From a virus (taxonomy: Duplodnaviria; Caudoviricetes), in the IMG/VR virus record IMGVR_UViG_3300005764_000047, positions 1 to 34,364 of that record: a stretch of DNA of 34,364 bases; one strand, 5' to 3'. Position 1 is the first letter of the stretch; every line of letters starts with the position of its first letter. The translations under genes and the position numbers were made by a program. A model generated the notes under the pieces. That model ran no database searches and had not been told where the DNA came from. It saw only the letters and a list, made by a program, of their open reading frames with translations. Positions 1-25,156 of this stretch are shown here, one piece after another.

Positions 1-117
1 GCTAAAGCGTCTCTTTGGAGATTTTTGCGGCCGCAGCCGTAAACATAATGCGGTGGGTTGCCAACTGGCGGGGTTTGCGGCGTGGTTTTGAGGTTTTTAC
101 CTAGCTACAAGGCGCAA

Positions 118-771
118 ATGGGCAAGCATCTTAAGTTAGCCAGGCCGCGGGCGGAATACGCCGCGCGGTTTGCCGTTGGGTTAACGGCGGTAGACACGTG
201 GATTAAGCGCGGCAAAGCGCACAACGATCCGCCGCCGTTAGATGAGCCGGCGGATATGGCGCGGTGGTGGCGGCGCGTAATGCGTGGGCCAGTGCCGGCG
301 CGCTTCCAAACGGTGGCCGTAAAGGAGTTTGAGCAGCGCGACTTTAGCCAGGTGCGCGGGTTGAGCATGGAACAGAACGTGGCGGCGTTGCGCGTTACGC
401 TGGCCATAAACAAAAAGCTTTTAGACGAGGCGTTGGCCACAAAAGATGAGGGCACGGTGGGGTTGCGCCAGCGCAATTACGAGCGTTGCTTTAACTTGCT
501 ACGCCTAGCGGAGCAAAGCTTAACCGAACTGCAAAAGCGGCGCGGGGAACTAATAGAGCGCGAGAAGGTGGTGGACGATCTAACGCGCATGGTGGAAAGC
601 TACAAGCTTATGCGCGAGCGCATGGCGCGCGACATATTGGTTAGCCTAGAGGGGCGCTGTAGCAAGCGCATGCGCCGGGCGTTAAATTACTTGCGCGAAC
701 ACCTGGAGGCCAGCATTGAAGAAGTGCGCCGCGGGGAGGAACTGTTTTTTGCAAATGGTTTAAAGGAGTAA
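118..771 (+). CDS. terS: Terminase small subunit (Nu1-like)
   Basis: N-terminal HTH-like segment (RAEYAARFAVGLTAVDTWIKRG) followed by a long coiled coil with a 'RRGELIERE' motif; lies upstream of the gpA-type terminase. ATG at 118 preferred over TTG at 58. Confidence 0.7.
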   Translation: MGKHLKLARPRAEYAARFAVGLTAVDTWIKRGKAHNDPPPLDEPADMARWWRRVMRGPVPARFQTVAVKEFEQRDFSQVRGLSMEQNVAALRVTLAINKKLLDEALATKDEGTVGLRQRNYERCFNLLRLAEQSLTELQKRRGELIEREKVVDDLTRMVESYKLMRERMARDILVSLEGRCSKRMRRALNYLREHLEASIEEVRRGEELFFANGLKE

Positions 772-780
772 AAAAAGGCC

Positions 781-954
781 ATGCCAATACCAACACCAAA
801 CAAAGGTGAGCCGCAGCGGTATTTTATTGCCCGTTGCATGGGCAACGCGGTGATGAAAAAAGATTACGCCGACAACAAGCAACGCCTGGCGGTATGTTAC
901 GGCAATTGGCGCAAAGCGCGCGGTGGCAAACCGCCGCCGCCGGCCAAAACGTGA
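781..954 (+). CDS. Small phage head-module protein (57 aa, MPIPTPNKGE...FIARCM...QRLAVCYGNW)
   Basis: Translated by hand (below the ORF-track cutoff). ATG at 781; TGA 952-954 overlaps the terminase GTG start (GTGA). Resembles small proteins recurrent in phage head modules. Confidence 0.75.
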   Translation: MPIPTPNKGEPQRYFIARCMGNAVMKKDYADNKQRLAVCYGNWRKARGGKPPPPAKT

Positions 955-2876
955 GTGCCGCGGCAGCCGAGCCCAGCAAGTGGCACGTGCTGGACAAGGT
1001 ATTTGCGGAGGTGTTTACACCCAGCCCCGACGTGCCATTGCCTATTTGGGCCAGTAAAAACGTTTTTTTAGACCGGCGCATGACCACGCGCCCTGGGTAT
1101 TACAACCCCGGCGAATACCCTTGGACGTGGGAATTGCAGGAGGTTATGCGGTTGCGGCGGTTATGGGAAGCGGAGGCGCCGGATGGGGCCACGGTAATAG
1201 TTGCCCCCAACACGGCTGGGGCGCGCGTAATGCGGGTGCACCAGGTGGATGTAATGAAGGGCACACAAACGGGGTGCACCGAGAGTGCGCTAAATGCGGT
1301 TAGGTTTATGGCGCGTTACGACCCGCAAAACATAATCTTTGCCATCGATAACGCGCGCCAGGCGGGCGAAGTTAACGTCATTAGGTTGCAACCCACGTTG
1401 CGCGACCTGGGGGCGCGCATATTTACCGATAACATAGATGATGCCAGCCAATTTATTTTAAAGTTGCGGCGCATGATAGTTTACTTTTTGGGCAGCTACA
1501 GTGAGGCCAATTTCACACAAAAAATGTGCGAGGTGGGCATAGCCGACGAGCTGGAGGAGCACGGCAGCAAAACGACCATTGCCGACTTGCATAGCCGCAT
1601 GAAGTCCAGCGAGCGGCGCCTATTGGTGGCCATGAGCAAGCCCAAATACGCCGGCGGCCCCATAGCGCGCGAGCACGCCAACGGCAGCCAACACGTGGCC
1701 GAAATAGCGTGCCCCCAGTGCGGCGGCTTCCAACAACTTGAGCAGGACAATATGCGTTTTAACCATTGCAAAAACGCGCTGGGCCGCTGGGATTTCCAAC
1801 GGGTGTTACGGGAAACTTACTTTGAATGCGTGCACTGCCAAAAACCCATAACCGAAGACAGTAAACGGTGGTTTAACCAACGGGAACGCCGGCGGTGGCG
1901 CCGCACAAATTTTGAGGGGGCCGAGCCCAACCACGTAAGCTTTCACCTTAGCGACTTCCTTAGCTACGACGACAGCGTGGCGTGGGGCCGGTTGGCCATT
2001 GAATACATAAATAGCAAGGGCGACCGCGAAAAGCGCCGCACATACCGCAACCACCACGAGGGGTTGCCGTATGAAGAGCGCGCCGTGCGCACCGAAACCA
2101 ACGACCTTTTGCTGTTGCGCGGCGATTACCCGCGCGGAGTGTTGCCGTGGTTGCCCAGGGCATTGGTGCTGGGGGCCGATGTGGGGCTTAATTACGTTAA
2201 GTGGGCCGTTTTGGCCTTGCGGATAACGAGTGAATATCCCAGTGAAGCGGCGGTTGTAGATTTTGGTAACGAGTTGGCCCCAGCGGACTTATTGCGCGTC
2301 ATGGGAGGGAGGGAATATCTTTGCGCCGAAGACAACCAACGCTACGGCATCACAATTGGGGGCGTGGACGAAAAATACCGCAAACTGGAGGTGCAGCAAG
2401 TGTGCATGCAAAGTGCGCGGCGGTTGTGGCCCACCGCGGGGTTGCCCAGTGATCTTAGCATTCGCAGCCTTAACTTTTCGCACATCCCGCAGGCACCGCC
2501 CTGGTTTGGCATAATTACTTACAATGATCGCGATGCCAAGCACGACCTTTATACCGACCGCATAGGGTCGTGGGCCGGCTGGATTAAGGCCGGGCGCCCA
2601 GTGGAGCGGCCGCCGGTGGGTAGCCCCTTGCATTTCCCGCGCGACTTAAGCGATGCGGCGGCCAGCCCCACGCGCGAATTCCTTTACGAACACACCAAAG
2701 AAAACCTGGTGGAAATGCCGGGCTTGCCCAGTGCGCGGCAGTTTATGTGGAAGCGCAGCGGCCCCAACCATTACGCCGACGCGGTAAAAGTGGCTTTGGT
2801 GGTTTGGCGCTTTTTTACCGTGCCCCACGATGTGCGCCCGGCGTTGCCGGCGGAATTGACACCGGGCGCAAAATAA
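951..2876 (+). CDS. terL: Terminase large subunit, lambda gpA family
   Basis: Deviant Walker A MKGTQTGCTE, Walker B IADELEE, CPQCG and CVHC zinc motifs, nuclease motifs GADVG and NHYADA. GTG at 951 is coupled to the upstream ORF. Confidence 0.93.
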   Translation: MSAAAAEPSKWHVLDKVFAEVFTPSPDVPLPIWASKNVFLDRRMTTRPGYYNPGEYPWTWELQEVMRLRRLWEAEAPDGATVIVAPNTAGARVMRVHQVDVMKGTQTGCTESALNAVRFMARYDPQNIIFAIDNARQAGEVNVIRLQPTLRDLGARIFTDNIDDASQFILKLRRMIVYFLGSYSEANFTQKMCEVGIADELEEHGSKTTIADLHSRMKSSERRLLVAMSKPKYAGGPIAREHANGSQHVAEIACPQCGGFQQLEQDNMRFNHCKNALGRWDFQRVLRETYFECVHCQKPITEDSKRWFNQRERRRWRRTNFEGAEPNHVSFHLSDFLSYDDSVAWGRLAIEYINSKGDREKRRTYRNHHEGLPYEERAVRTETNDLLLLRGDYPRGVLPWLPRALVLGADVGLNYVKWAVLALRITSEYPSEAAVVDFGNELAPADLLRVMGGREYLCAEDNQRYGITIGGVDEKYRKLEVQQVCMQSARRLWPTAGLPSDLSIRSLNFSHIPQAPPWFGIITYNDRDAKHDLYTDRIGSWAGWIKAGRPVERPPVGSPLHFPRDLSDAAASPTREFLYEHTKENLVEMPGLPSARQFMWKRSGPNHYADAVKVALVVWRFFTVPHDVRPALPAELTPGAK

Positions 2877-2879
2877 CAC

Positions 2880-3191
2880 ATGGCACAGATGGCAACATAC
2901 GCCGAGCAACGCTCCTCGGCGGCGCGTTACCTGGCTTACACTTACCCCGGCGATGTGGACGCCATAACGGCGATTAAAGACGCGGCATGGGCCGATGCGC
3001 AAGCGGGCAAAACGGTGGTTAGCACCAGTTACGAGGGCGCGAGCACCAGCAGCATTTTAACGGGCTACGACCCCGTGGCAATTGTGGATGCGTGCCTGGA
3101 TGTGCTGGCGGCCATGGGCGCCGCGGGCGCCACAACCTCAACCTCGCGCTCTATTTTTACACGGTTTGGCAGCCAAGTTGTGCAAAGTTAA
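2880..3191 (+). CDS. Head-tail adaptor, gpW-like by position
   Basis: 103 aa between terL and portal as in lambda; contains 'GKTVVSTSYEGASTS'. Confidence 0.55.
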   Translation: MAQMATYAEQRSSAARYLAYTYPGDVDAITAIKDAAWADAQAGKTVVSTSYEGASTSSILTGYDPVAIVDACLDVLAAMGAAGATTSTSRSIFTRFGSQVVQS

Positions 3192-3199
3192 AAACGGCT

Positions 3200-4852
3200 A
3201 TGGACGAGGCCCTACCCATTCAAGTGCGTGCGCGCCCTGGCGCCCGCCGCAGGCAACCGCCGCGCACCCCCAGCGCCATAGGGGTTGCCGGCGCTGTAGC
3301 GGCCAACGTGGGCGCGCCGCGGGGCCAACCTGGGGGCAATGGCGACTACGCGATGAGCCTAAAAGCGTGGAGCGCTTACGAGGGGGCTAACTGGAGCCAA
3401 AACCGCGGTTGGATTTACTTCCCAACGCTTTACAGCAAAAGCGACCTTGACCAATACACATTAACCGAGCTGCGGCGCAAAAGCCGGTGGCTTTACGTTA
3501 ACGTGGGCCTTGCCACCAGGGTAATTGATGGCATAGCGAAAATGGTTGGCAGCCTTACGCCCGTGCCGCAAACCGACGACAAGGAATGGAACGAGCTGGC
3601 GCTGCAAAGCTTTACCAACAATGCGGGGGCGGAAATTGTTTTTGACCAAGGCGGCAAGTTTAACTTTTGGAGTTGCCAGCCAATGCTTACCGCACTGCGG
3701 CTTTTAGATGGCGATGCCCTGGTGGTGCTCACGGCAACGCAAAGTGGTATTGCCAGCGTAATGTTTTACGAGGCGCACCAAATAGGCAACGCCAACAACG
3801 TTTTCCCCGACCAAGACCAGTGGAACGTGGGCGTAATGGCCAACGCGCAAAACCGCCCCTTACAATACCGTTTGCTAACTGACAACGGCAACAAGAGCGT
3901 AGACATAAGCGCTTCGGATGCCATTTTGCATTGCCTTTTTAGGCGCCCATGCCGGCAGCGAGGCGAGCCTGCAATGCGCCACGCCATTAACCACTTGCTG
4001 GACCGCACTGAGATTTTGGGCTTCCTAAAAACCAGCATGAAAAACGCGGCCACCATTGGTTACCAAATAACGCGCTCACCGCAGTTTAGCGGCCCGGTGC
4101 AATTGCCGGCGCTTAACCAAGGGCCAATTGACTTTACCGTGCCGTCCAGCGGCGCCGTAATTAAGGTGGAAGATGCCTTTAGCGGCACCAAAACGCCCGT
4201 AATGAACCCTGGGGAGGAAATTAAAATGCTAATGGACGAGCGGCCGCACCCCAACCAAATAGAGGGGATGGATTACCTGGTGCGCGACATTGCGTGGGGC
4301 TTCGACATATCGCCCGATCTGCTTTGGAACATAGCCAAGGTGGGCGGCGCTGACACGCGCTACCTATTGGCCGATGCGCAAAAAACCATTGAAGGCATGC
4401 AAATGCTTTTGGCCGACCAATTTTGCAGCCGGTTTTGGGTGTATTTTATTGCCAAGGAACTTAAAGCCGGCCGGCTGCGGCAACCCAGCGATGCGCAATG
4501 GTGGAAGCACGGGTGGCAACCCGAGCAAAAGCTTACGGTAGACATAGGGCGCGATGGCAAGCTTTACCTGGACATGCACAAGGCGGGCCTTATTAGCCTT
4601 AAGCGTTATTTTAGCAGTGCTTACGGGGCAAGCTGGGAGCCCGAGATGCGCGATTACCTAGACGAACGCAAATGGATAATTGATGAGGTAGAGGCGCGCA
4701 ACCTAACTTACGAGCAGGCGTTCCCGCCGGCGCCGGGCGTGCAAAACATAACACAACGCGAGCAAGCCGCGGAAACCGCCACCGGGGCAGAGGTGCCGGT
4801 TGCGCCCGGTAAACGCGGCGGGGGCGCAAAAGGAGGCGGCGCGGCCCCATGA
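3200..4852 (+). CDS. Portal protein, lambda family
   Basis: AYEGA, 'LRRKSRWLYVNVGLA', 'LLDGDALV', 'QRGEPAM' and 'VDIGRD' motifs typical of lambda-type portals; ATG at 3200 follows the upstream stop. Confidence 0.9.
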   Translation: MDEALPIQVRARPGARRRQPPRTPSAIGVAGAVAANVGAPRGQPGGNGDYAMSLKAWSAYEGANWSQNRGWIYFPTLYSKSDLDQYTLTELRRKSRWLYVNVGLATRVIDGIAKMVGSLTPVPQTDDKEWNELALQSFTNNAGAEIVFDQGGKFNFWSCQPMLTALRLLDGDALVVLTATQSGIASVMFYEAHQIGNANNVFPDQDQWNVGVMANAQNRPLQYRLLTDNGNKSVDISASDAILHCLFRRPCRQRGEPAMRHAINHLLDRTEILGFLKTSMKNAATIGYQITRSPQFSGPVQLPALNQGPIDFTVPSSGAVIKVEDAFSGTKTPVMNPGEEIKMLMDERPHPNQIEGMDYLVRDIAWGFDISPDLLWNIAKVGGADTRYLLADAQKTIEGMQMLLADQFCSRFWVYFIAKELKAGRLRQPSDAQWWKHGWQPEQKLTVDIGRDGKLYLDMHKAGLISLKRYFSSAYGASWEPEMRDYLDERKWIIDEVEARNLTYEQAFPPAPGVQNITQREQAAETATGAEVPVAPGKRGGGAKGGGAAP

Positions 4853-5226
4853 TTATAGCAACCGACTTTGACGGGGTTAACTTTTACGGGGGCGACACCT
4901 TCGACTTTACCCTTAATTGGAAGGACGCCAACGGGACGCCATTTAACCTTACGGGGTGGCACGCCCGGCTGCGCTTTTACACCGCCAAAACCGCCGACCG
5001 CACTGTGCCGCTTATTGAAATTACGGATTTAACGGGCCTAACCTTTGGCAACATCACGCTGGGCACCACCAGCCCCAACATTAAGTGCACCATCCCCGAC
5101 GAACAAACCGGCTCTTACGACGCCGGGCCGCCGGGCTATTACATTTTGGAGTTGGAAGATACCGCGGGCGCCTGGCAACGCCTGATGGAGGGCAAAGTGG
5201 TTTACCGCAAAAAGAGTAAGGCATGA
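4849..5226 (+). CDS. Virion structural protein, BppU-N-like fibre attachment domain
   Basis: 'GDTFDFTLNWKDANGTPFNLTGWHARL...YYILELED...RLMEGKV' pattern; ATGA overlap with the portal stop. Confidence 0.6.
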   Translation: MIIATDFDGVNFYGGDTFDFTLNWKDANGTPFNLTGWHARLRFYTAKTADRTVPLIEITDLTGLTFGNITLGTTSPNIKCTIPDEQTGSYDAGPPGYYILELEDTAGAWQRLMEGKVVYRKKSKA

Positions 5227-5699
5227 TCGAGGTGCTAGAAAACCAAACCACGGTGGTGCCGCTGGATACGCCCAACACCATTGACCTGGGTGGCGCCACA
5301 AGCGTGGACGTTATTACCGCGCCCGTTACCACGTTGCAAGCTGCCGAAACCCTAGCGCCCGTTGACGTGTTAAGCACAACAAGCACGTTGGATTTAAGTG
5401 CGGTGCAAGTTACGCCCCTAGAGGTCGTTTCGCCTGGGCCGCAAGGGCCAAAAGGCGATACCGGGGCGCCTGGCACCGGCAGCGCCATTTACAACGAAAC
5501 GCCCACGGGCGCCATTAACGGGGTTAACACCACCTTTACCGCGGTTAACAACTTCCGCGGTGAAACCCTGGCGGTTTACTTAAATGGGCTGCGCCAACGG
5601 CCCACCGACGATTTTATTGTTGTGGGCGCCAACACTTTCCAAACCACCCTGGCACCTTTAGCCAATGATCGGCTTTCGATAGATTACTACCTGCTATAA
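5223..5699 (+). CDS. Short collagen-containing fibre/decoration protein
   Basis: GPQGPKGDTGAPG collagen triplets, then a C-terminal 'NETPTGAINGVNTTFT...VYLNGLRQ' beta domain. Confidence 0.7.
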   Translation: MIEVLENQTTVVPLDTPNTIDLGGATSVDVITAPVTTLQAAETLAPVDVLSTTSTLDLSAVQVTPLEVVSPGPQGPKGDTGAPGTGSAIYNETPTGAINGVNTTFTAVNNFRGETLAVYLNGLRQRPTDDFIVVGANTFQTTLAPLANDRLSIDYYLL

Positions 5700-5702
5700 C
5701 TT

Positions 5703-7343
5703 ATGGCCACCACACAAATACGCGGCAACACACAGATAATGGCCGGCACCATTGTCGATGCCCAAATATCGGCAACGGCGGCCATTGTAACAAGCAAGCT
5801 GGCCGATAGTGCCAATTTTATTTTACGCACTGGCGTAACGGCCTTCACGGCCAACCAATCGATGGGCAGCAACAAGCTAACCAATGTGCTTGACCCCACC
5901 GCGGCGCAGGATGCGGCCACCAAAAACTACGTGGACAACGTGGCCCAGGGCCTTTCGCCCAAAGCCTCAGTGCGCGTGGTAGCCACCACCAACGTTACGC
6001 AAAGCGGCACCCAAACAATTGACGGCGTGGCATTATCCGCCGGCGACCCGGTTTTGTGTATAGGGCAAACCACCGGCAGCCAAAACGGGTCGTGGGTTGT
6101 GGCCAGTGGCGCGTGGACGCGCACAGTGGATTTTGCTGACCCGCAAGATGCCGTGCGCAGCCCTTATTGGTTCGTTGGCGAGGGCACGGCCAACGCCGGC
6201 AGCGGGTGGGTAATGACCACGTGGCCATACACCATTGGCACCACCGCGCTGTCGTTTACCCAGTTTACGGGCGCGGGCGAAATTATAGCGGGCAACGGCT
6301 TAAGCAAATCGGGCAACACCCTTTCCATCGACACCAACATAACGGTGGATAAAAACACCACGCAAACCCTTACCAACAAAAGCATCGTTGCCACACAGTT
6401 AACGGGCACTTTGCAAGCCGCGCAATTCCCCGCTTTAACCGGCGATGTTACCACGGTGGCCGGCGCCCTGGCCACCACCATTGCCAATAGCGCCGTCACG
6501 CTGGCAAAGATGGCGAACCTGGCGGCCAATAGCGTTATTGGCAACGCCACCGGCAGCGCCGCGGTGCCCACCGCAGTTGGGATGGTTAGCGCCGCCACCG
6601 CGAGCACCGTGCCTTACCGCGATGCCAACGCCAATTTCCAAGTAAACAACGTCATCGAAAACATGCGCACCACGGCAACTGCCGCGGGCACCACTACGCT
6701 TACAATTTCCGATGCAGCGTTTCAGCAATTTACCGGCTCGTCAACGCAAACCGTGGTTATGCCTAACGCCACCACCCTGGTAAATGGCCACTCTTTTATT
6801 ATTGCCAACCGCTCGAGCGGCGCGGTTACGGTAAACATGAACGGCGGCTCGCTTTTGCAAACCATGGCCGCTGGCACTTTTGCAGAATACACGCTAATAA
6901 GCAACGGCACCGCGGCGGGCACCTGGGATGTGGCTTACACAACGCCGGGCGGCGGCTCCGTCACAACGGTCTCGGTGGTTACGGCCAACGGTTTTGCCGG
7001 CAGCGTTGCTAATGCCAGCACCACGCCGGCCATTACCCTTACCACAACCATTACCGGCGTGCTTAAAGGCAATGGCACCGCCATTTCGGCAGCCACCGCT
7101 AGCACCGATTACATGGCGCCGTCCAGCTTTATTGTGCGCGAAACGCCCAGCGGATCGGTTAACAGCGCCAACACCACTTTTACCCTAGCCAATACGCCCT
7201 TGGCCGGCACCGAGCAGGTATTCCTTAACGGCTTATTGCAAGAACCAGGAGCCGGCAATGATTATACAATTTCGGGCGGCACCATCACCTACCTTACGGC
7301 CCCCACCACGGGCGATCGGTTGCGGGTAAGCTATTACAAATGA
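5703..7343 (+). CDS. Thr/Ala/Gly-rich fibre protein
   Basis: 'DPTAAQDAATKNYVD' stalk motif, 'SVRVVATTNVTQSGTQTIDGVAL' module, 'LTGDVT' segment and a C-terminal domain shared with 5223..5699. Confidence 0.8.
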   Translation: MATTQIRGNTQIMAGTIVDAQISATAAIVTSKLADSANFILRTGVTAFTANQSMGSNKLTNVLDPTAAQDAATKNYVDNVAQGLSPKASVRVVATTNVTQSGTQTIDGVALSAGDPVLCIGQTTGSQNGSWVVASGAWTRTVDFADPQDAVRSPYWFVGEGTANAGSGWVMTTWPYTIGTTALSFTQFTGAGEIIAGNGLSKSGNTLSIDTNITVDKNTTQTLTNKSIVATQLTGTLQAAQFPALTGDVTTVAGALATTIANSAVTLAKMANLAANSVIGNATGSAAVPTAVGMVSAATASTVPYRDANANFQVNNVIENMRTTATAAGTTTLTISDAAFQQFTGSSTQTVVMPNATTLVNGHSFIIANRSSGAVTVNMNGGSLLQTMAAGTFAEYTLISNGTAAGTWDVAYTTPGGGSVTTVSVVTANGFAGSVANASTTPAITLTTTITGVLKGNGTAISAATASTDYMAPSSFIVRETPSGSVNSANTTFTLANTPLAGTEQVFLNGLLQEPGAGNDYTISGGTITYLTAPTTGDRLRVSYYK

Positions 7344-7347
7344 TGCC

Positions 7348-7554
7348 ATGGCGGAAATCCACATAACTTACGACGAAGCCACGGGCAACGTGAACGTTAA
7401 CGGCCCGGTGCACAATAAAGGGCTTTGTTACCTTATGCTCGAGTGTGCGCGCGATGCGGTAAAAGACCACGTGGATAACGTAGCTAAAATCACGGTGCCG
7501 GCTAACGGCGGCCCCCTGGCCTTCTTACCGCGCCGCGGCAAACCCAGGCGTTGA
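7348..7554 (+). CDS. Hypothetical protein (68 aa)
   Basis: Fills the gap between fibre genes on the coding strand. Confidence 0.6.
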   Translation: MAEIHITYDEATGNVNVNGPVHNKGLCYLMLECARDAVKDHVDNVAKITVPANGGPLAFLPRRGKPRR

Positions 7555-7563
7555 CACACACAC

Positions 7564-7830
7564 ATGGCAGCCACAAACGTAAGGGGCGGGCAAATTGGCG
7601 ACGGCACGGTGCAGCGCGTTGATTTGGATGTGGCCACCATCGGGCAGGCCGTAATCCGCAAAATAGTGCAGGGCACTAATATAACCATCTCGAGCACCGG
7701 CGCTGATTCCGGCACTGGCGATGTTACCATCAACGCCGCGGGCGGCAGCGCAACCGATTACGTGATTGGCGGCTACGTGAAGGGCGAGGTGCTTACTGAT
7801 GCAACTGGCAACGCAATAACAAGCTCATGA
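7564..7830 (+). CDS. Small fibre-associated protein
   Basis: N-terminus MAATNVRGGQIGDGTV resembles that of 5703..7343; contains a 'GTNITIS...GTGDVTINA' fibre motif. Confidence 0.7.
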   Translation: MAATNVRGGQIGDGTVQRVDLDVATIGQAVIRKIVQGTNITISSTGADSGTGDVTINAAGGSATDYVIGGYVKGEVLTDATGNAITSS

Positions 7831-8510
7831 GCAGACACCAGGATCAAACCGCAAACCATATCATCGAAAGTTTCGTTTACGCCAATTCTACCGCTAGAAT
7901 GGCCGCGACGGGCTTTGTTTCTGGTGATGTAGGCCGGCTGGCTTTCCAAACAGACCAAAACGCCTACTACCGGCTCACAGCCACCACTCCAACTTGGTTG
8001 TTGGAGGCTTCAATCGAAAATGCCGACACCGCAGCCCAGGGCTCAGTTACAGCAGGCACCAGGACTTACCTTGCCGGCTCTTCTATCCAATGCGGGCAAC
8101 TTTTAGTGGGCAGCAGGTTTAGGTGGGTGGTAAGCATAACCAAAACCGCGGCAGGCGTAGCCAATACCAACATCGATATTGCCGTCGGCACGGCTGGCAC
8201 CACCGCTGACACGGCAAGGGTCACTTTTACTGGGGCAACCGAAACCGCCATTGCGGACACCGCCACAATTGTTATTGATGCCACGGTGCGGGTAGTTTCG
8301 GCCAGCGGCATAATCGCAGGCGCTTACCAGGTCAATAACACGGCCACCGCTGGCGCGGCAGCGGGTTACAAGGCAAATGCGGCTTACGTCGTCTCTGCCG
8401 CTTTTGCCAATAACACCAACAACCTTTTCATCGGCCTTTGCATTACCGCAGGCACCGCGGACGTGACTACGGTGAATTTCGTTAACGCAATGGGGTGGAA
8501 CATCGGATAA
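7827..8510 (+). CDS. Fibre/receptor-binding-like protein
   Basis: Thr/Ala-rich, beta-rich C-terminus; N-terminal module shared with the next gene; ATGA overlap. Confidence 0.7.
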   Translation: MSRHQDQTANHIIESFVYANSTARMAATGFVSGDVGRLAFQTDQNAYYRLTATTPTWLLEASIENADTAAQGSVTAGTRTYLAGSSIQCGQLLVGSRFRWVVSITKTAAGVANTNIDIAVGTAGTTADTARVTFTGATETAIADTATIVIDATVRVVSASGIIAGAYQVNNTATAGAAAGYKANAAYVVSAAFANNTNNLFIGLCITAGTADVTTVNFVNAMGWNIG

Positions 8511-9317
8511 ATGGCTGACGAACAGCGGGGACTAGATACGCTGATCGAGCGCTTCACGTTTGCCGATGCTGCGGCGCGCACTGGAGCCACAGGCTTATTC
8601 AACCAAGACATTGGCAAAATCGCTTACCAAACCGACACGGGTATTTATTACAGGCTAACTAGCCTTTCGCCTTTAACTTGGGCAGTGGTAGCACCGGCGG
8701 CCACAAAGATAACAATTCTAACATCTGGCACCACATGGAGCCCAACTGCGGGGTGCAGAGCGTTTTGGGCGGAATGCGTGGGCGGCGGCGGCGGCGGAGC
8801 AGCAGCTAACGGTGGGCCAAGTGCGGCTTCGTGTTGCTCAGGCGGCGGCGGTGGTGGTTACGCCGCAAAATACTACAGCGGCGTCTTGGCGGCCTCATAC
8901 ACCTGCGCTATCGGTGCAGGTGGCGCTACCGATACTGCTGGAGGCGATACCAAATTTGATGGCACCACCAACGTGTATGCAGTTGGAGGAACGCAAGGTA
9001 GTTTCATGAGCAATGGCACCGCTATCACCGTGCTTGCTGGTGGCGCCGGCGGAGGTGCTACCTTTGGCACCTTACGGATTCAGGGATCCGATGGCGGACC
9101 TGGCGTGCGTTTTAGCGGCACAGCAGGCTATGGCGGCCAAGGTGGTGCATCGGGCAGAGGTTTTGGTAGCGCAAACGGAGTTACCGTCGTTGCTGGCGTA
9201 GGAGCGGCAGGCTACTTGTATGGCGGTGGCGGTGGTGGAGCGCTCGCGTTCAGTTCAGGTGTGCAAAACGGCGGGACAGGTGCGAACGGCGTAATAAGGA
9301 TAATGGAGTTTTTCTAA
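8511..9317 (+). CDS. Glycine-rich fibre protein
   Basis: 'VGGGGGGA...SGGGGGGY...YGGGGGGA...GANGVIRIMEF' glycine-rich domain common in phage fibres. Confidence 0.75.
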   Translation: MADEQRGLDTLIERFTFADAAARTGATGLFNQDIGKIAYQTDTGIYYRLTSLSPLTWAVVAPAATKITILTSGTTWSPTAGCRAFWAECVGGGGGGAAANGGPSAASCCSGGGGGGYAAKYYSGVLAASYTCAIGAGGATDTAGGDTKFDGTTNVYAVGGTQGSFMSNGTAITVLAGGAGGGATFGTLRIQGSDGGPGVRFSGTAGYGGQGGASGRGFGSANGVTVVAGVGAAGYLYGGGGGGALAFSSGVQNGGTGANGVIRIMEFF

Positions 9318-9364
9318 CAAACAGGGGGGGGGTTTGACATTTGCACACGGCAAAAAGGTAGGAA

Positions 9365-10747
9365 ATGAACCCTTACGAGATCAACTTATACGGCACAATT
9401 GGCGCGGGTTTTTTAGAGGAAGGCAACGATGCCAAAAGCGTGGTGGACAAGATTAAGGCCGCCGGTGCAGCCCCCATTGACCTGCACATCCATTCCCAGG
9501 GCGGCAGTTTATTCGATGGTTACACCATCTACAATGCCCTACAAGCGCACCAGCCGGGCGTTAACGTGTTTATTGATGGCATAGCGGCCTCCATTGCCGC
9601 TTACGTGGCTATGGCCGGCAAAACCATTACCATGCCCGACAATGGCATGATGATGATCCACAATCCAACCATTGAACCGGGGCGCGTTGACAGCAAGAAA
9701 ATGCGCCAGCAAGCCGAATTGCTGGGCAAAGTTACCGCCTCCTACAATGAGGCCTTTGCGCGGCGCGGCCTGCTTACGGGCGAGCAAGTGCAGCAAATGA
9801 TGGATGCCGAAACGTGGATGACGGCACCAGAGGCTTTGCTGGCCGGGCTTATCGACGACATAACGCCCGAATTGGCCCTAGCCGCAAGCTTTGACCTATC
9901 GGAATTTGCGCACCCACCCGAAACGTTGCTGGCGCAGGCTGGCACCAGGCCCAGCAAAAAAGAAGGGGCGCCGCAAAGCCCGCCCAAAGGTTACCCGCAA
10001 AGCCGCGACCAATACGCTGACCCAACCAATTACAAATACCCGATCGACACCGAACAGCACACCCGCGCCGCGTGGAGCTACATTAACAAGCCGGAAAACC
10101 GCAAGGGCTACAGCGCCAGCGAGCTTACATACATGGAAAACCGCATAAAAAGCGCGGCCAAAAAGTTTGGCATTAAAATAGCGGAAGGGAATTTTGACAT
10201 CGCCGTCACCAACATGGACACTCCAGCCGCAGAACCAGAACCCCAGCCGCCGCAGCCGCCGCCAGAGGATGCGGCTAAAGAGCCCACCATCTTGGATAAG
10301 CTAAACGCCTTGCTGAAACCAAAGGGCGAATTGCAAGCCGAAATTAACGCTCTTAAAAGCCAAATTGAGGTGCGCAACGCAAGCATTGCCGACCTAAATG
10401 GGCAAATTAACAAATTAAACGCCGAGATTGTGGGGTTAAAGGCCGAGGCCAACGAATTGCCCGCAATCCGCAAGTTGGTGGCCGATTTAGAGGCGGAAAA
10501 GAAAAGCACCGAGGCCACGGTGGCGGATAAGGTGGCGGCCCTTGGTTTCCCGCAGGATAAATTGCCGGCTGCAACCGCGGACAAGGACCAGAAAAAAGAT
10601 GAAGCCACGCCTACCGCGGAAGCCTTGCTTGAGGAATTAAATAAAATTACCGACCCACGCGAATTCACCAAGGCTTACAACCGGCTACGGCCTAAAATTC
10701 AAGCCGCGTGGCAAGCCGCAAAAGCCGCCGGCACTTTGACACCCTAA
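9365..10747 (+). CDS. ClpP-type (S14) prohead protease fused to a DUF6582-like domain and a coiled-coil scaffold
   Basis: HSQGGS, GIAASIAA (catalytic Ser), MMMIHNP (His) and MDAETWM motifs, then YADPTNYKYPIDTEQHTRAAWSYIN, then a heptad coiled coil. Confidence 0.92.
   Translation: MNPYEINLYGTIGAGFLEEGNDAKSVVDKIKAAGAAPIDLHIHSQGGSLFDGYTIYNALQAHQPGVNVFIDGIAASIAAYVAMAGKTITMPDNGMMMIHNPTIEPGRVDSKKMRQQAELLGKVTASYNEAFARRGLLTGEQVQQMMDAETWMTAPEALLAGLIDDITPELALAASFDLSEFAHPPETLLAQAGTRPSKKEGAPQSPPKGYPQSRDQYADPTNYKYPIDTEQHTRAAWSYINKPENRKGYSASELTYMENRIKSAAKKFGIKIAEGNFDIAVTNMDTPAAEPEPQPPQPPPEDAAKEPTILDKLNALLKPKGELQAEINALKSQIEVRNASIADLNGQINKLNAEIVGLKAEANELPAIRKLVADLEAEKKSTEATVADKVAALGFPQDKLPAATADKDQKKDEATPTAEALLEELNKITDPREFTKAYNRLRPKIQAAWQAAKAAGTLTP
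10214..10747 (+). CDS. Putative internal in-frame scaffold protein (Nu3-like)
   Basis: In-frame ATG (MDTPAAEPEP) 14 nt after TTTTGACA (10192-10199); analogous to lambda C/Nu3. Confidence 0.5.
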   Translation: MDTPAAEPEPQPPQPPPEDAAKEPTILDKLNALLKPKGELQAEINALKSQIEVRNASIADLNGQINKLNAEIVGLKAEANELPAIRKLVADLEAEKKSTEATVADKVAALGFPQDKLPAATADKDQKKDEATPTAEALLEELNKITDPREFTKAYNRLRPKIQAAWQAAKAAGTLTP

Positions 10748-10769
10748 AAGTCAGTAACAAAAACCTCCT

Positions 10770-11651
10770 ATGGCAACCTATACCAACCTCTCCGACATTA
10801 ACTTCGCCCAGCAAGCCCTCCAGGGTTTCGTGGCGACGTTGGTGCCGTTAAACAATTTCAGCACCAATTTCGAGCCCACGCCCATACCGCCGGGCAACAC
10901 GGTTATTGTGCCGTTGATTGGGTCGCTTACCGCCACCACGTTTGGAGGCAATTACGCAATTTGCGGTGGCACCATGACGGGCATCACCGTGGTAATTAAC
11001 CGCCACAAGCACATCCCAATTGGCCAAAGTGACCTTACGCGCGCCTCAAGCTCCTGGGCACAACTCGACCGCTTCGCCTTCCAACAAGGCGCCGGCCTTG
11101 CCCTGGCGGTTTTGCAGGACATTTTGTCGCTTGTTACCAACGCCAATTTCGTGCTCGCCACCAGTGTGGCTAACCAAAGTTTTGGCATTGCCCAAATCTT
11201 AAAGGCGCGCCTTGACCTAAACAATAGCAAGGCGCCCCTTACCGAGCGGTCGTTGGTGCTAGATGTGGCGCCCTTTAATGCGCTGCTAACGCTTACCAAC
11301 TTCATCCAAACGCAAGCTTACGGCGACCGCACCGCGCTTTTGGAAGCCAAAATCCCCAGGGCATTGGGCTTCGACATCTTTGAAACCAACGGGCTGCCTG
11401 GCACCAACTCCATTATGGGTTTTGCAGCGGTGCCCAGCGCAATTGCCATTGCCATGCGCTATTTGCAGCCCGGTAGCGACCAGTATTACATCGACGCGCG
11501 GCCGGTGGCTGACCCCAACACGGGCGCCACTTTTGGCTACCGCCGGCACTACGATCCAAACACCGGCAACGAATTCATCAACTTGGAATGCAATTACGGC
11601 TACAGTGCCGGCATTACGCAAGGGCTGGAGTTTTTCCAACGCACTGACTAA
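10770..11651 (+). CDS. Major capsid protein
   Basis: 293 aa directly after the protease/scaffold; 'GNTVIVP', 'RSLVLD' and 'RALGFDIFETN' capsid-like segments; followed by a terminator-like hairpin. Confidence 0.82.
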   Translation: MATYTNLSDINFAQQALQGFVATLVPLNNFSTNFEPTPIPPGNTVIVPLIGSLTATTFGGNYAICGGTMTGITVVINRHKHIPIGQSDLTRASSSWAQLDRFAFQQGAGLALAVLQDILSLVTNANFVLATSVANQSFGIAQILKARLDLNNSKAPLTERSLVLDVAPFNALLTLTNFIQTQAYGDRTALLEAKIPRALGFDIFETNGLPGTNSIMGFAAVPSAIAIAMRYLQPGSDQYYIDARPVADPNTGATFGYRRHYDPNTGNEFINLECNYGYSAGITQGLEFFQRTD

Positions 11652-11689
11652 CACGCTTTTTTGGTTATCGTAAAACGGCTCAGACAGAT

Positions 11690-11721
11690 AAAACGGCCGC
11701 GTGCTTGGCGCGGCCGTTTTT
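11690..11721 (+). terminator. Intrinsic terminator-like hairpin after the capsid gene
   Basis: AAAACGGCCGCG-tgcttgg-CGCGGCCGTTTT: perfect 12-bp inverted repeat ending in a T-tract. Confidence 0.75.
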
Positions 11722-11726
11722 AGCTT

Positions 11727-13958
11727 ATGGCAGGCACAATTTCGCTTTGCCTAATTGCGGGCAACGTAGAGGAATATATTGAGCGGTGCCTGACCAGCTT
11801 TAGCCCTATAGCGGACGAAATTGTGGTGGTGCGCGCCATAGGCACCCAAACACCAGACGGCACACTGGATATTGCACAGCAAAAATTTGGCGCAACGGTG
11901 GGCGTTTACACGAACGGCGGCCTGGTGCACCCAAAGGACGGTCCCAGCGAAGGGTGGCCGCACATAGATAACTTTGCCGCCGCGCGCCAGCAAAGCTTTG
12001 ACATGGCCAGCGGCGATTACCTTTTTTGGGTGGACACCGACGACGTGCTGCACGCCGGCGCCGAATACGTTAGGCAACACGCCGTGCGCAATGGTTTCCC
12101 AGCCTTCTTTTTCCGTTACGACGTGTTTGGCCGCGGAGTAGATTTAACGCGCGAGCGCATGATCTTGCGCGGTGCCGGCCGTTGGCGTTACCCGGTGCAC
12201 GAATGTTTCGATTTCAACCTGCCGCCCAAAGGCGTTGAAGACCAGCGGGTAATTGTGCGGCACCTGCCCACGACGCATAAAACCGGCTCTTTGGAGCGCA
12301 ACATGCGCATTATGGAGTCGATCCCCGACAAGGAGCTTGTGCCGGGTTTAATTTACCACATGCACGGCGAACTTATGGGCTACCCCGAGCGGCAAGCCGA
12401 AGCCGTTGCGTGGGGTAAGCGCGCCTTTGAGCACCCCGAAATGGGCAAGGCCGAGCGCTACGAAATTTGCCTTAACCTGGGGCGCATAAGCAAAAAACCG
12501 CAGGTGGCGGCCGCATTTTACCACCAGGCTTATGCCATTGACCCCTGCCGGCGCGAGGCACTGGGCCTTTTAACTTCTAGCGCCTTGGATTACGGCCGTA
12601 ACGAGGAAGCTTACGCATACGCCAGGCAAATGTTGGCCACCACGCCGCCAGTGGAACGTAGTTGGAATGATCGCGCCGCGGCTTATGAGTGGTTGGGCAT
12701 AGATATTTTCACGCAAGCGTTGCGCATGAATAACATGGCCGAAGAAGCCGAACGGTGCCGGTTGCGGGTGCTAAACGATTCTGGCGGCCCAGTTATTTCG
12801 CTAATACACGCCACGCGCGGCCGACCGCGGCAAGCTTGCATTGCGCGCAAAGCTTGGCTGGACTTAGCCGAACGGCCGCAGCGTGTGGAACACGTTTTTG
12901 TAACCGACGGCGACGACGCTGTCTCTTTGCCTTTGCGCCGCATGTTTAGTGCAGTGGTGGCGCAAAAAGACGGCGGCCCAGTTGCGGCGTGGAACCTGGG
13001 GGCACAAGTAACGTGCGGGCAAATCATGGTGCAATTGTCCGACGATTGGACGCCGGTGCCGCGGTGGGATGTGCTACTGGAGGAGCGCCTGGGCAACCTT
13101 AATGAGCCAAAGGTGCTGGCTATTTCCGATGGCACGCGCAAGGACGACCTGCTTTGCATGGCTATTTGCACGCGCGCTTACTGGGCCTTGGATTACTTCT
13201 TTTTCCACCCGCGGTTTTTCAGCGTATTTAGCGACAACTGGTTTACCCACGAGGCTTACCGCCGCGGCGTGGTGGTGCAAGCCCGCGACGTAGTATTTAC
13301 GCACCGGCACCCGTTTTTTATGGAAACCGTGGAATTGGACGATGTTTATTTGCGCAGCAACGCCGCGGAACATTACGACCAGGGCCAAAAAACCATGCGC
13401 TTCCTTGCCAGCGGCCAGGATTGGAGCAGTGTGCACGGCTGGTTCAATTACTGGCCTTTTTACCGCGCCGTGGCAGCCAACTTAAAACAGGGCGACACGG
13501 TGGCCGAAGTTGGCACCTGGCTGGGCCGCTCCATAATTTACCTGGCGCAAGAATGCCAGCGCCTTAACAAAAATGTGCACTTAATTGCCGTTGATAGTTA
13601 CCGCGGCGAACACGACCAAAAAGAGCAGCTCGATGTGGTGGCCCAGCACGGTGGCAGCATATTGCCGGCGTTTAAAGCTAACCTACAGCGGTGCGGCGTG
13701 GCCGGCATGGTTGAAATTTTGGATGGCGATAGCGCCCAAATGGCCGGGCGCGTTGGCGATGGCACCCTGGCCTTTTGTTTTATCGATGCCGCGCATGATT
13801 ACGCGAGCGTGCGCCGGGACATAACGGCGTGGTTGCCAAAAATTAAAAAGGGCGGCATGTTGGCCGGCCACGATGCGCAGCATGAGCCCGTAATGCGAGC
13901 CGTTAAGGAGCATTTTAAAAATGCGCAGGTGGTGGGGCCAATATGGATAGCAGCGTAA
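11727..13958 (+). CDS. Multidomain GT2 - TPR - GT2 - class I SAM methyltransferase (Methyltransf_24-like)
   Basis: GT-A 1: NFAAARQQS...WVDTDD...YPVHE. TPR-like helices: AYAIDPCRREAL. GT-A 2: ISLIHATRGRP...QLSDDW...FSDNWFT. Methyltransferase: EVGTWLGRS...FIDAAHDY...GGMLAGHD. Confidence 0.88.
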   Translation: MAGTISLCLIAGNVEEYIERCLTSFSPIADEIVVVRAIGTQTPDGTLDIAQQKFGATVGVYTNGGLVHPKDGPSEGWPHIDNFAAARQQSFDMASGDYLFWVDTDDVLHAGAEYVRQHAVRNGFPAFFFRYDVFGRGVDLTRERMILRGAGRWRYPVHECFDFNLPPKGVEDQRVIVRHLPTTHKTGSLERNMRIMESIPDKELVPGLIYHMHGELMGYPERQAEAVAWGKRAFEHPEMGKAERYEICLNLGRISKKPQVAAAFYHQAYAIDPCRREALGLLTSSALDYGRNEEAYAYARQMLATTPPVERSWNDRAAAYEWLGIDIFTQALRMNNMAEEAERCRLRVLNDSGGPVISLIHATRGRPRQACIARKAWLDLAERPQRVEHVFVTDGDDAVSLPLRRMFSAVVAQKDGGPVAAWNLGAQVTCGQIMVQLSDDWTPVPRWDVLLEERLGNLNEPKVLAISDGTRKDDLLCMAICTRAYWALDYFFFHPRFFSVFSDNWFTHEAYRRGVVVQARDVVFTHRHPFFMETVELDDVYLRSNAAEHYDQGQKTMRFLASGQDWSSVHGWFNYWPFYRAVAANLKQGDTVAEVGTWLGRSIIYLAQECQRLNKNVHLIAVDSYRGEHDQKEQLDVVAQHGGSILPAFKANLQRCGVAGMVEILDGDSAQMAGRVGDGTLAFCFIDAAHDYASVRRDITAWLPKIKKGGMLAGHDAQHEPVMRAVKEHFKNAQVVGPIWIAA

Positions 13959-14539
13959 CGCCAGAACCACTTTTGTCGGTATTAACGCCCGCGGTGCCTT
14001 CGCGCATCTTGGCGGTTAACAGCTTGTGCAAGGTGTTGGCCGACCAAATAGGTGCCGCCCCAGTTGAGCACATAATTTTGGTGGACAACAAACGGCGCAC
14101 GGTAGGCGAAAAGCGCGATGCCTTATTGCGTGCTGCGCGCGGGTTTTACGTGGCTTTTGTAGATGACGACGATATGGTGGCCCCAGAATATGTGCACGAA
14201 CTGTTGCAAGCCACGCATTCGCGCCCAGACGTAATAACGTTTTGCCAGCAAGCAAGGGTAAATGGGGCGTGCGCCCTTGTGGAATTCAAGCTGGGCAATC
14301 CTAACGAAGAATTCAAGCCCGACGTCACGGTAAGGCGTAACGCCTGGCATGTGTGCGCCTGGGCGCGCACCCTGGCAATACAAAGCCATTTCCCAGCCCT
14401 TAATTACGGCGAAGATTGGGCTTTTGCCGAGCCACTTTGCAAGCTTGCAAAAACCGAGGTGCACATCCCGCAGGTTTTGCATTATTATAGGCATGCCACG
14501 GAGTTATCCGAAGCGCCGCCACTACAGCGCACCTTATGA
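13943..14539 (+). CDS. Glycosyltransferase family 2 (GT-A fold)
   Basis: LLSVLTPAV, 'VGEKRDAL', YVAFVDDDD, YGEDWAFA and 'LHYYRH' motifs. Confidence 0.88.
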   Translation: MDSSVTPEPLLSVLTPAVPSRILAVNSLCKVLADQIGAAPVEHIILVDNKRRTVGEKRDALLRAARGFYVAFVDDDDMVAPEYVHELLQATHSRPDVITFCQQARVNGACALVEFKLGNPNEEFKPDVTVRRNAWHVCAWARTLAIQSHFPALNYGEDWAFAEPLCKLAKTEVHIPQVLHYYRHATELSEAPPLQRTL

Positions 14540-14763
14540 CCATGTATTTCCGTGATGCCGCAGTTGCCGAGCGTTTCTTGGCGCTTTGCACCGAGCGCGC
14601 CATAGCCGCGCACGTAACGCGCAACGGCCAAAAGCTGGTGGTTGACGCCCAGGTGCCGCGCGGCGCCCGCAGTAAATTCGTGGCGGCCTGGGCAGCCCTT
14701 AGCATGGAAGTGCCGGGCCAGCAGCGCCGCGCCGATGCACAGTTAACTTTGCGCTGGCGTTGA
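14536..14763 (+). CDS. Hypothetical protein (75 aa)
   Basis: ATGA overlap with the GT2 stop. Confidence 0.55.
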   Translation: MTMYFRDAAVAERFLALCTERAIAAHVTRNGQKLVVDAQVPRGARSKFVAAWAALSMEVPGQQRRADAQLTLRWR

Positions 14764-14783
14764 CAATTGGGCCACCTCTAAAG

Positions 14784-15140
14784 GTGTCGCTCCAATCGCA
14801 AGTTACAACGCTAATGGCCATGGGCATGGACGACCGCATCGCCATGTTTGGCAAAACGGGCCGCATGAAAGACCAAGACGGCAGCCCCACGCACACTTTC
14901 AATTGCTATTATACCCCAGTGCGCTCCAGCGAACAGTTAACCGAAGCGTTGTTTAAAGATGTGCATGACAGCATTGTGCGCGTGCCCAAAACCGAACAAT
15001 GGGTGGATGCCACGGTTGGCAAAGAGCTAACGCTATTGGCCGCCCAAAACAATGGCAGCGATATGCGGTTGCGCATAAGCGAACTGGGCCACTCAACCAT
15101 TAACCCCGAATTCGTGCTGGGCTGCAAAGCCCTTTTCTGA
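14784..15140 (+). CDS. Head-closure protein, FII-like by position
   Basis: Size and position before the neck genes; GTG start at 14784, 18 nt after TTGACA. Confidence 0.55.
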   Translation: MSLQSQVTTLMAMGMDDRIAMFGKTGRMKDQDGSPTHTFNCYYTPVRSSEQLTEALFKDVHDSIVRVPKTEQWVDATVGKELTLLAAQNNGSDMRLRISELGHSTINPEFVLGCKALF

Positions 15141-15142
15141 TT

Positions 15143-15823
15143 ATGCCCGAGGCGCCCGTCATACAATTTACCGTGCGCGTGGACGATTCACAGTTATTGG
15201 CAAGGACAGCCGAAATGGCGCGGGCTACTGGGCGCACCATTGCTGAACAATCGCGCCTTACCATGAAGGCGCTGGTTAAATACGTGCTTACCTACACGCC
15301 GCCGGCAAGCCAAAAAGCACAGGGCAAAGCGGCCCAAACCGCCGGCGAACTGGCCGTTGTGCGCGACATGAAGAAGCTTTTTTACGCCGTGGATTTTAAG
15401 GGCAAGCGCACCGAGAAATTTCCCGACCCAGGGGCGCTGCACCAGGCGGCCTTTGCCTCCGGAGCGCTGGTGCCACCATCTAAGCGTTACCACGTTGACA
15501 AGGCCAAAATAACGGCGCTAAAGACCACTTTGCAACATAACATTGGCCTATTGGCTTCTGGTTGGGCGCCATCCGCAAACACCCTGGGCGTGCCCATGCC
15601 GGCGTGGATAACCCGGTGGGCAGGTTCGGGCCGCGGCACCAATTTAATTACAACCGAGCGTGGCACCAAGCTTAACCTAAAAGTAACCAACCACATGCCC
15701 GGCACGGCGCGTGTGGTGGCGGCGCAAACGCAAAGGCTAGTGGAATCTGCAAAACGCGCCCAGGTAAATTCAATGCAGCGCCAGCTGCCTTACATCTTGA
15801 AACGGGCGCTCAGGGGACACTAA
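15143..15823 (+). CDS. Neck/tail completion protein, Z-like by position
   Basis: Basic helical protein containing 'TPP' and 'GLLASGW'; synteny with lambdoid tails. Confidence 0.55.
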   Translation: MPEAPVIQFTVRVDDSQLLARTAEMARATGRTIAEQSRLTMKALVKYVLTYTPPASQKAQGKAAQTAGELAVVRDMKKLFYAVDFKGKRTEKFPDPGALHQAAFASGALVPPSKRYHVDKAKITALKTTLQHNIGLLASGWAPSANTLGVPMPAWITRWAGSGRGTNLITTERGTKLNLKVTNHMPGTARVVAAQTQRLVESAKRAQVNSMQRQLPYILKRALRGH

Positions 15824-15829
15824 AAAAAA

Positions 15830-16312
15830 GTGGCCACGCCATCCATCCAGCTTGACCTTGAAAACGCGCTTAAAAGCTACCTTACGGGCATTTCGCTTTT
15901 CGTGCCGGCGGTGCCGGTGGTGGCGGCCCACGCCACCGAAACCGTGACGGACGGCACCTACATTTCTATTAAAGCCGATACGCCAGATTGGTATAGTTTG
16001 GGCGGTTACAACGCACAAATTAACGTGGTGTTCGAATTTGGCACTAAGGTAAGCGACCCCGCCGTGCGCAACGCCGCGGACATAGCGCATTCGGTGCGCA
16101 CGGGCAATTTAATTGAGTGGCTGTCCATGCAAAATTTTGCCCAAATGAAGGGGCAACTTAATGCCCCCGCTTTCCCGCTGCCCGATAACCGGCCGTGGAA
16201 AGGGCTGGGCTTTAGCGCATGGGAAGAAATGACGCCGCCGGCCGAAGAGCGCACCGAAACGCAAATTGTAACCCGGTTGGCCTACGAATTTGTGGTGCAG
16301 TTGGAATCGTAA
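15830..16312 (+). CDS. Tail terminator protein, U-like by position
   Basis: 160 aa immediately before the tail tube gene; GTG start. Confidence 0.55.
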   Translation: MATPSIQLDLENALKSYLTGISLFVPAVPVVAAHATETVTDGTYISIKADTPDWYSLGGYNAQINVVFEFGTKVSDPAVRNAADIAHSVRTGNLIEWLSMQNFAQMKGQLNAPAFPLPDNRPWKGLGFSAWEEMTPPAEERTETQIVTRLAYEFVVQLES

Positions 16313-16354
16313 TTTTGACAAGCGGCCACCATTAACTTTTAACCTCCAAAGCTT

Positions 16355-16726
16355 ATGGCACAGCACCAGCAAGTTGGCTCTTTTATTTACACCCGCAGTG
16401 CCCCCACGTTTACCGGTTACATAGTTGTGGGCGGCACGTGGCAAGAAGATGATGCATTGCAAGTGGACGATGTCCTAAACCAAGACGAGGCCACGTTTAA
16501 TACGACGGGCTGGGACCCTGGCCTAAACGCGCGCTGCGACCTATTGGCGCAAACAACAACCGCCGGCACGGCCTCTTTGCTCGTGTTGGACATAATTACC
16601 GAGGTTACGCCCTCGACGCGTTCTTGGCTGGTTAAAAAGGTGAGTAAAAAGTTTGCGAAGCGCAAAGTGGTTTTCACGGTGGAGTTGCAATTTAGGGCGG
16701 CGCAAGACCTGACCCAATTCTTTTAA
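16355..16726 (+). CDS. Major tail (tube) protein, compact
   Basis: Beta-rich 123 aa protein two genes before the tape measure, with a TTTTGACA motif upstream. Confidence 0.55.
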   Translation: MAQHQQVGSFIYTRSAPTFTGYIVVGGTWQEDDALQVDDVLNQDEATFNTTGWDPGLNARCDLLAQTTTAGTASLLVLDIITEVTPSTRSWLVKKVSKKFAKRKVVFTVELQFRAAQDLTQFF

Positions 16727-16729
16727 AAT

Positions 16730-17344: not shown

Positions 17345-17347
17345 AAA

Positions 17348-19663: not shown

Positions 19664-19664
19664 C

Positions 19665-21452: not shown

Positions 21453-21574
21453 CGCTCGAACAGCTAATTGAACGCATACACACCTTATTCGTCCGCGGCT
21501 TTATCGTCCCAACCAGCGCGGGGCTAATTATCCGAAGGCTACCTGATGGCCGTTACGAGATTAGGCTCAAATAA
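21449..21574 (+). CDS. 41-aa protein paralogous to the tailspike N-terminus
   Basis: Translated by hand: MTLEQLIERIHTLFVRGFIVPTSAGLIIRRLPDGRYEIRLK; ATGA overlap with the upstream stop. Confidence 0.7.
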   Translation: MTLEQLIERIHTLFVRGFIVPTSAGLIIRRLPDGRYEIRLK

Positions 21575-23180: not shown

Positions 23181-23204
23181 GTTTGACAAAATTCTTCCCG
23201 TAAT

Positions 23205-23570: not shown

Positions 23571-23574
23571 TCGT

Positions 23575-24729: not shown

Positions 24730-24800
24730 CTGGGCGCTTTTGACACCCTATGAGTAAACGTAAACGTAAACCCAAAACCACCGAAAGGAACAAACAAAAA

Positions 24801-25142: not shown

Positions 25143-25156
25143 TAAAAAGGCTAAAT

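Follow-up and report, generated by a model that had tools for sequence, protein, structure and literature searches.

The DNA examined here is a linear 34,364-base phage record (Caudoviricetes; IMG/VR record IMGVR_UViG_3300005764_000047), the whole of which we call the window, and its subject is a pronounced shortage of the dinucleotide TC and of its complement GA. All called genes lie on the + strand and run from the small and large terminase subunits (terS and a lambda gpA-type terL) through portal, protease and capsid genes, two glycosyltransferase genes and the tail genes to a GH75-like lysin candidate, a resolvase, small early genes, RecT and an exonuclease. CheckV places completeness at ~48%, and replication genes are absent from these 34 kb. 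Matching contigs continue beyond the right end by as much as 1,209 bases, a 35,573-base version is on record, and viral scans with terL, capsid and exonuclease found no sequence extending the window. The record is present in seven soil runs, six of which hold at least half of the sampled words. The sequence is authentic, as long stretches are matched by contigs of other runs with 0 differing letters, some of which runs may be its own source. Near-identical contigs are almost invariant (one G>C), and a population mutation spectrum is therefore not available. Because the named terL relatives come from Chthoniobacterales bins (54-56% identity), this is the likely host order as judged from sequence.

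The deficit is genome-wide, affects both strands and acts at the level of the dinucleotide. Over the window (1..34364), + strand rho is 0.35 for TC and 0.62 for GA (strand-symmetric TC/GA 0.50), and + strand TC rho is at most 0.65 in all 35 1-kb bins. When genes were shuffled synonymously with proteins and codon usage fixed, the deficit persisted, with 92 junction TC versus 371 expected (z -19.8) and 264 junction GA versus 739 expected (z -26.8), which bears out an earlier suggestion, made in a sequence-only reading, that both strands are affected. The corresponding codon-junction observed-to-expected ratios (O/E), from a slightly different gene set, are 0.23 and 0.34. Intergenic DNA (1,134 bases) is similarly poor in TC/GA (0.44), CC is unaffected (1.0), TT/AA is high (1.57) and CT/AG is low (0.69). 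All 16 NTCN contexts are ~1.5-6 times rarer than in a sister phage (~75% nucleotide and 90% terL identity); only such window/sister ratios were used, because collinearity inflates the codon model's standard errors. The signal is not driven by any one 3- or 4-base context, in keeping with the sequence-only reading of a long-term dinucleotide-level pressure wider than one restriction site. Two of its candidates fit poorly for this reason, namely DarT-type modification of TNTC/TCTC (TNTC being judged through its NTC parts) and restriction at GATC/TCGA-type sites, since neither GATC (92 vs 103.5 expected) nor TCGA (144 vs 105.7) is depleted further. No modification-free islands were found in the window, where no stretch longer than 141 nt is free of both GA and TC.

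The deficit was first noticed as an extreme and patchy one, and the counts behind that impression hold. Between 361 and 1335 a single TC occurs, at 579, and the next starts at 1336, leaving a TC-free run at 581..1335 that spans the end of terS, an intergenic stretch and the start of terL. Most of the + strand GA in 361-1335 lies in Asp/Glu codons as proposed (38 of 51 at codon positions 1-2, with 8 at junctions and 5 intergenic). The second patch, 26581-27060, has two TC (26750 and 26823) and largely coincides with an early gene without assigned function (26618..27070, O/E 0.21). The 755-nt run is nevertheless the tail of a genome-wide trait, since its p is ~4e-4 at the genome rate but ~0.05 if the rate within the first 5 kb is used. 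Patchiness as such is real (chi2 112, df 38), although modest in size. The most purged gene is terS (118..771), with an avoidable TC/GA O/E of 0.11 over 367-771, and terL (951..2876) reaches 0.27. The least purged are two virion/fibre-like genes (7827..9317; 0.61 and 0.76) that have no match in the sister and were likely acquired more recently, and the tape measure and tail genes (17348..23180), which match the sister poorly, are also less purged (0.36-0.52). Avoidable TC/GA O/E is 0.30 in the 22 genes well conserved with the sister versus 0.43 in the 16 that are poorly matched or absent, and the rank correlation of purge with sister conservation is not significant (p 0.21). In part, patchiness tracks exchanged tail modules.

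The trait is lineage-specific and is not seen in the likely host order. TC/GA rho is 0.89 and 0.82 in two sister contigs (L001/G002 and L006; range among sisters 0.82-0.91), 1.04-1.23 in more distant terL relatives and never below 0.84 in 80 unrelated viral loci. Within the clade, junction TC/GA falls from 1.17/1.19 in the outgroup provirus G003 through 0.98/0.77 in the sister to 0.23/0.34 in the window. A check for the same bias in host DNA, proposed from sequence alone, found none in 40 stretches of Chthoniobacterales (1.01-1.39 in 40/40), and 20 terminase-bearing loci of that order score 1.05-1.41. Two short contigs of the window's terL clade (L009 and L010, terL 73-77% identical) are purged of CC/GG (0.56) instead of TC/GA. 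The trait is real, strong and recent. In the outgroup provirus itself, a C5 cytosine methyltransferase, a TET-associated glycosyltransferase and ParB-like genes lie upstream of terS (L035:11251-16775), which gives this terminase group a further modification module.

How the sites were lost was read from 4,533 codons at which window and sister share the amino acid. The C side is lost, as in GTC (14 in the window vs 55 in the sister), CTC (11 vs 80) and ATC (40 vs 116), and G before A is similarly reduced (15/131 vs 66/131). The T side is lost too: T before C at NNY|C junctions falls to 9/127 in the window from 52/127 in the sister (p 2e-10), with no window/sister change in the NNY|G control (p 0.92), and on the other strand GGA (8 vs 43), CGA (4 vs 23) and AGA (1 vs 16) behave alike. 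Losses from T to C therefore do not come from a C>T process, which cannot turn T into C. The deficit is thus best read as selection against the two-base step, not as C>T deamination or ultraviolet (UV) damage alone. Because synonymous sites between window and sister are near saturation, the direction of change is not polarised and mutation may have contributed a share.

Relatives that purge a different step offer a natural comparison. The window's PD-(D/E)XK exonuclease (32328..33443), used as a scan query, led through its relatives to CC-purged phages: of the 12 loci obtained, four (three of them distinct) are poor in CC/GG (0.45-0.56), and in each of these recT is followed immediately by a methyltransferase-like gene bearing DPFAG and TSPPY motifs. 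Genomes with this gene and a pyridoxal phosphate (PLP) enzyme are low in CC over near-whole records (G305 0.58, G307 0.47, G310 0.65, G312 0.46), whereas two genomes that have neither gene are not (G309 0.90, 98% complete; G308 0.89, 100%). G309 belongs to the same virion clade as the CC-purged carriers (about 45-80% identity), and orthologous codons of G307 versus G309 agree with a CC purge (e.g. ACC 6/63, GCC 27/135). Across the methyltransferase-like family, CC is below 0.7 in 18 of 52 loci (duplicates included) versus 0 of 80 background viral loci, and GA is below 0.8 in three of the 52, two being one phage. A quick tree was built from the 43 distinct rows left once duplicates, sequences shorter than 180 aa and those scoring below 150 had been removed. 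In one of its branches, 13 of 14 loci have CC at most 0.72; outside that branch, 2 of 28 rows fall below 0.7. TC/GA is also lost in G310, a complete genome (0.75), and in L213 (0.61), which lie near each other in the CC-purged branch and share the window's raised AA and GC. The purged step accordingly varies among CC (the CC-purged relatives and L009/L010), CC plus TC (G310/L213) and TC (the window) among phages with genes, and probably hosts, in common. A search of 301 host-order genomes at E 1e-20 did not find the methyltransferase-like family.

Some further observations on these relatives can be recorded. The CC/GG purge is genome-wide in G305, G306, G307, G310 and G312 (L192-L197, L202, L255-L260) and in L203-L221 (rho 0.36-0.72), all of them phages with the SPPY methyltransferase-like gene behind recT; TA is also very low in most of them (0.21-0.4), and G306 has two tandem copies of the methyltransferase-like gene. 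G308 encodes an adenylosuccinate synthetase-like protein (L198:18098-19159), which is possibly PurZ (2-aminoadenine DNA).

The site behind recT (30681..31784 in the window) differs among these phages, holding the methyltransferase-like gene in the CC-purged relatives and a PLP gene in the sister, whose contig stops at that gene. Homologs of the sister's PLP enzyme include the one encoded by G305 (hhalign 99.9%) and gp52 of phage M6 (E 7e-9), and PLP genes from Salmonella and Aeromonas phages are related to it as well. In other phages, the neighbours of this PLP family are N6/N4 methyltransferase-like and GNAT genes (ten loci). Phage pairs of a methyltransferase-like and a PLP gene (PHROG 498/12517 with 3650/7093; the Pam4 gp70 fusion and AlanGrant gp1-gp2) belong to the same families as the genes of the CC-purged relatives; unlike those relatives, four cultured carriers are purged of neither CC nor GA.

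By analogy with the CC-purged relatives and from the sister's PLP gene, we give about an even chance to the explanation that TC/GA was purged because a dinucleotide-specific modification made by the phage itself, retargeted to TC, acts on this step and is costly at each site; the gene, the modified base, its chemistry and the kind of cost are inferences. A methyltransferase-like enzyme and its PLP partner are predicted in the unseen half of the genome. The enzyme would mark the C of 5'-YC-3', with a mark on the paired G or on A as alternatives; its SPPY motif presumably points to the N4 position. The PLP enzyme may then trim a transferred amino-acid group, as happens in thymidine pathways, and the target may have shifted from CC to TC in the window's lineage. 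Each marked site would carry a cost, through hindered replication or transcription or through cutting by a modification-dependent nuclease of the host, and such a cost would keep TC/GA sites low. A broader proposal, which we hold more tentatively, is that verrucomicrobial phages possess an uncharacterised methyltransferase-like/PLP pathway for cytosine hypermodification in a two-base context, with specificity switching among CC, YC and TC and each switch rewriting the genome by selection.

Several results weigh against a costly modification of the phage's own. A search with 19 modification proteins, known or candidate, found no homolog in the 34-kb window, the PLP gene was not found there, and the SPPY methyltransferase-like gene was seen neither in the window nor in the sister contig (both less than half complete); in the window, a nuclease-fold gene occupies the place behind recT. 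Of the family loci, 34 of 52 have CC of at least 0.7 and 49 of 52 have GA of at least 0.8, and the contrast between genomes with and without the gene comes essentially from one clade. Relative to G309, the TC loss of G310 occurs at GTC/CTC codons and not at GA junctions (16/53 vs 11/53). Two candidate predictors were rejected: the PLP gene alone, for which ten loci have GA of 0.96-1.18 with no depletion, and G310's second methyltransferase, whose cultured carriers Pam4, R6L, Mae-JY30 and AlanGrant score 0.97-1.25. The cost of the phage's own DNA modification, one of the candidates raised by the sequence-only reading, has the best comparative support through the CC-purged relatives and lacks a modification gene in these 34 kb.

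A host defence that reads TC/GA in unmodified DNA (a short-motif nuclease, a nickase or a base-modifying toxin), from which a lineage that had lost its module escapes by sequence, is the main rival and appears unlikely to us. It fits the loss through both bases, and the window is without a PLP gene at the sister's site. Restriction-type losses are also present. GTAC is gone from both strands (0 vs 150.7 expected), as are six 6-mer palindromes, including CTGCAG, GGGCCC, CCCGGG, ACATGT and CATATG, whereas the sister retains GTAC (66 vs 123 expected) and GGGCCC; such losses resemble an unprotected genome and count against the phage's own modification. The lost palindromes contain no GA/TC, the overall palindrome O/E of the window is like the sister's, and window palindromes with and without GA/TC do not differ (aggregate 0.85 vs 0.87). 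Many related phages also lack GTAC, as do 9 of the 40 Chthoniobacterales stretches, and its absence looks like ordinary restriction avoidance, separate from the TC/GA deficit. In restriction-site avoidance, selection removes a short motif from phage genomes at synonymous sites on both strands. The window likewise loses a short motif at such sites on both strands, with GTAC as the classical form; the unit here, however, is a non-palindromic dinucleotide that is cut 3-4 fold in all contexts and not eliminated, and thousands of TC/GA sites remain. A host reader would need self-protection at a very frequent site, because host-order DNA is rich in TC/GA, and it leaves unexplained why the purged step in the relatives follows a phage gene.

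An already known modification, either 7-deazaguanine at GA by DpdA or hypermodified T at TC, is a still weaker candidate. CAjan reportedly carries DpdA-type dPreQ0 at GA. DpdA of phage iggy places dPreQ0 strictly at GA, at 97% of GA sites, and the main text of that report remarks on a lower GA count, with the words deplet, underrepresent and avoid absent from it (PMC10484667). By our measure iggy has a mild deficit (rho 0.86 across 24 kb; junction 0.76/0.73), and the comparison phage JG054 has none (1.14; junction 1.12/1.07). The window shares with iggy the GA step, a similar GC (57% in iggy) and a two-strand deficit, but its deficit is far deeper and no dpdA or que gene was found in the 34 kb of the window, about half of the genome, or in its relatives. 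Thymidine hypermodification proceeds by transfer of a group after replication, followed by a PLP decarboxylase that trims the amino acid (PMC8989533); it is reported to fall mainly on TG or TC (PMC13458397), with M6, ViI, PhiW-14 and SH-Ab 15599 as examples (PMC8989533, PMC5889632, PMC13458397). The homology of the sister's PLP enzyme to M6 gp52 and to the Salmonella and Aeromonas genes speaks for such a pathway, whereas in the window's relatives the PLP gene pairs with a methyltransferase-like gene. By tblastn, dpdA, que, hydroxymethylase, kinase and transferase have no homolog in the window or nine related records, and the TGT family has no match in 5/5 records; for the 5-hydroxymethyluracil route specifically, neither hydroxymethylase nor kinase nor amino-acid transferase was found in the window or the sister contig (both incomplete), the sister having the PLP homolog only. 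The T modifiers at TG/TC are not TC-depleted (M6 1.20, PhiW-14 1.12, ViI 1.12), and CAjan and 9g score 0.88 and 0.92 (20-50 kb each). Known modifiers thus range over 0.86-1.20, and since they score mild or normal, modification alone does not give a deficit of the window's depth, which also counts against a new modification of the phage's own.

Context-dependent mutation, by a TC-preferring cytidine deaminase (APOBEC3- or DddA-like), by UV damage or by a lesion spanning TC, is improbable as the main cause. APOBEC3-type TC depletion and DddA mutagenesis concern the same dinucleotide and act by C>T; in the window T is replaced as often. In its favour, C>T is the commonest change at C (the C of a sister TC aligns to T in the window at 22% versus 5-12% in other contexts), and the raised TT/AA and lowered CT/AG agree with it. 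The T-side loss is equally strong, however, as T gives way to C ahead of a C and A to C or G behind a G, and sister GTC codons align to GTG (19), GTT (18) and GTA (13). TC-specific deamination or UV is not supported as the main cause, because T is also replaced, in a direction that raises GC; the window's GC is not below the sister's (0.56 vs 0.54), and the runs that contain the window are soil runs.

It is very improbable that the phage's own nuclease-fold protein behind recT (31781..32350) cuts TC/GA of host or rival DNA, with the genome avoiding self-cutting. The gene is in the window and absent at the sister's site, belongs to a widespread phage family without Pfam or PHROG match, and is modelled with a PD-(D/E)XK restriction-enzyme fold (pLDDT 93; a single-sequence prediction, pLDDT 34, was discarded as useless). 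The best Foldseek match of the model is Eco15I (E 2e-4), VIA Z is 7-8 (middling) to DpnI, PvuII, I-Ssp6803I and NhoI, and the best matches include the methylation-dependent enzymes Eco15I, NhoI and DpnI. As a cause the gene was rejected: 83 viral loci of the family, none closely related to the window's protein, have GA of 0.84-1.53 (mean 1.06), the sister is already partly depleted without the gene at that site, and no link to the trait was found. Least credible of all is a bias that mirrors an unsampled host lineage, which would require the phage's actual host to depart from the TC/GA-rich composition of the Chthoniobacterales stretches and terminase-bearing loci.

Other features of the window were noted alongside. 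Two glycosyltransferase genes, one fused to a methyltransferase, follow the major capsid gene directly (11727-14539) and are conserved in the sister; by analogy they may serve virion glycosylation. A GH75 chitosanase-like gene with a weak Pfam match (23952-24473; 58-80% identity across these phages) is the endolysin candidate. Two stretches similar by eye, at about 25790-25890 and 27510-27610, lie upstream of small early genes and could possibly each be a promoter plus a shared gene start; both repeats still contain GA.

A literature search that stopped short of most subscription journals and supplements found no publication on a phage TC/GA deficit, nor on the product of the methyltransferase-like/PLP gene pairs, and as far as searched the link of a dinucleotide purge to this module is new. 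Base modification of phages is usually described as pure protection. A 3-4 fold dinucleotide purge between phages with 90% identical terminases shows a strong and recent pressure that reads two bases. If the host were the cause, this would be a defence with an unusually short target. If the phage's own enzyme were the cause, the cost per site would be large enough to recode a genome, and new DNA chemistries, together with the steps they target, could be recognised from composition alone. Enzymes for expression and test are already available from G310, which is complete, and from the pair G307/G309. Should the cytosine-hypermodification proposal be true, dinucleotide deficits would become a map of unknown phage base modifications and of their costs.

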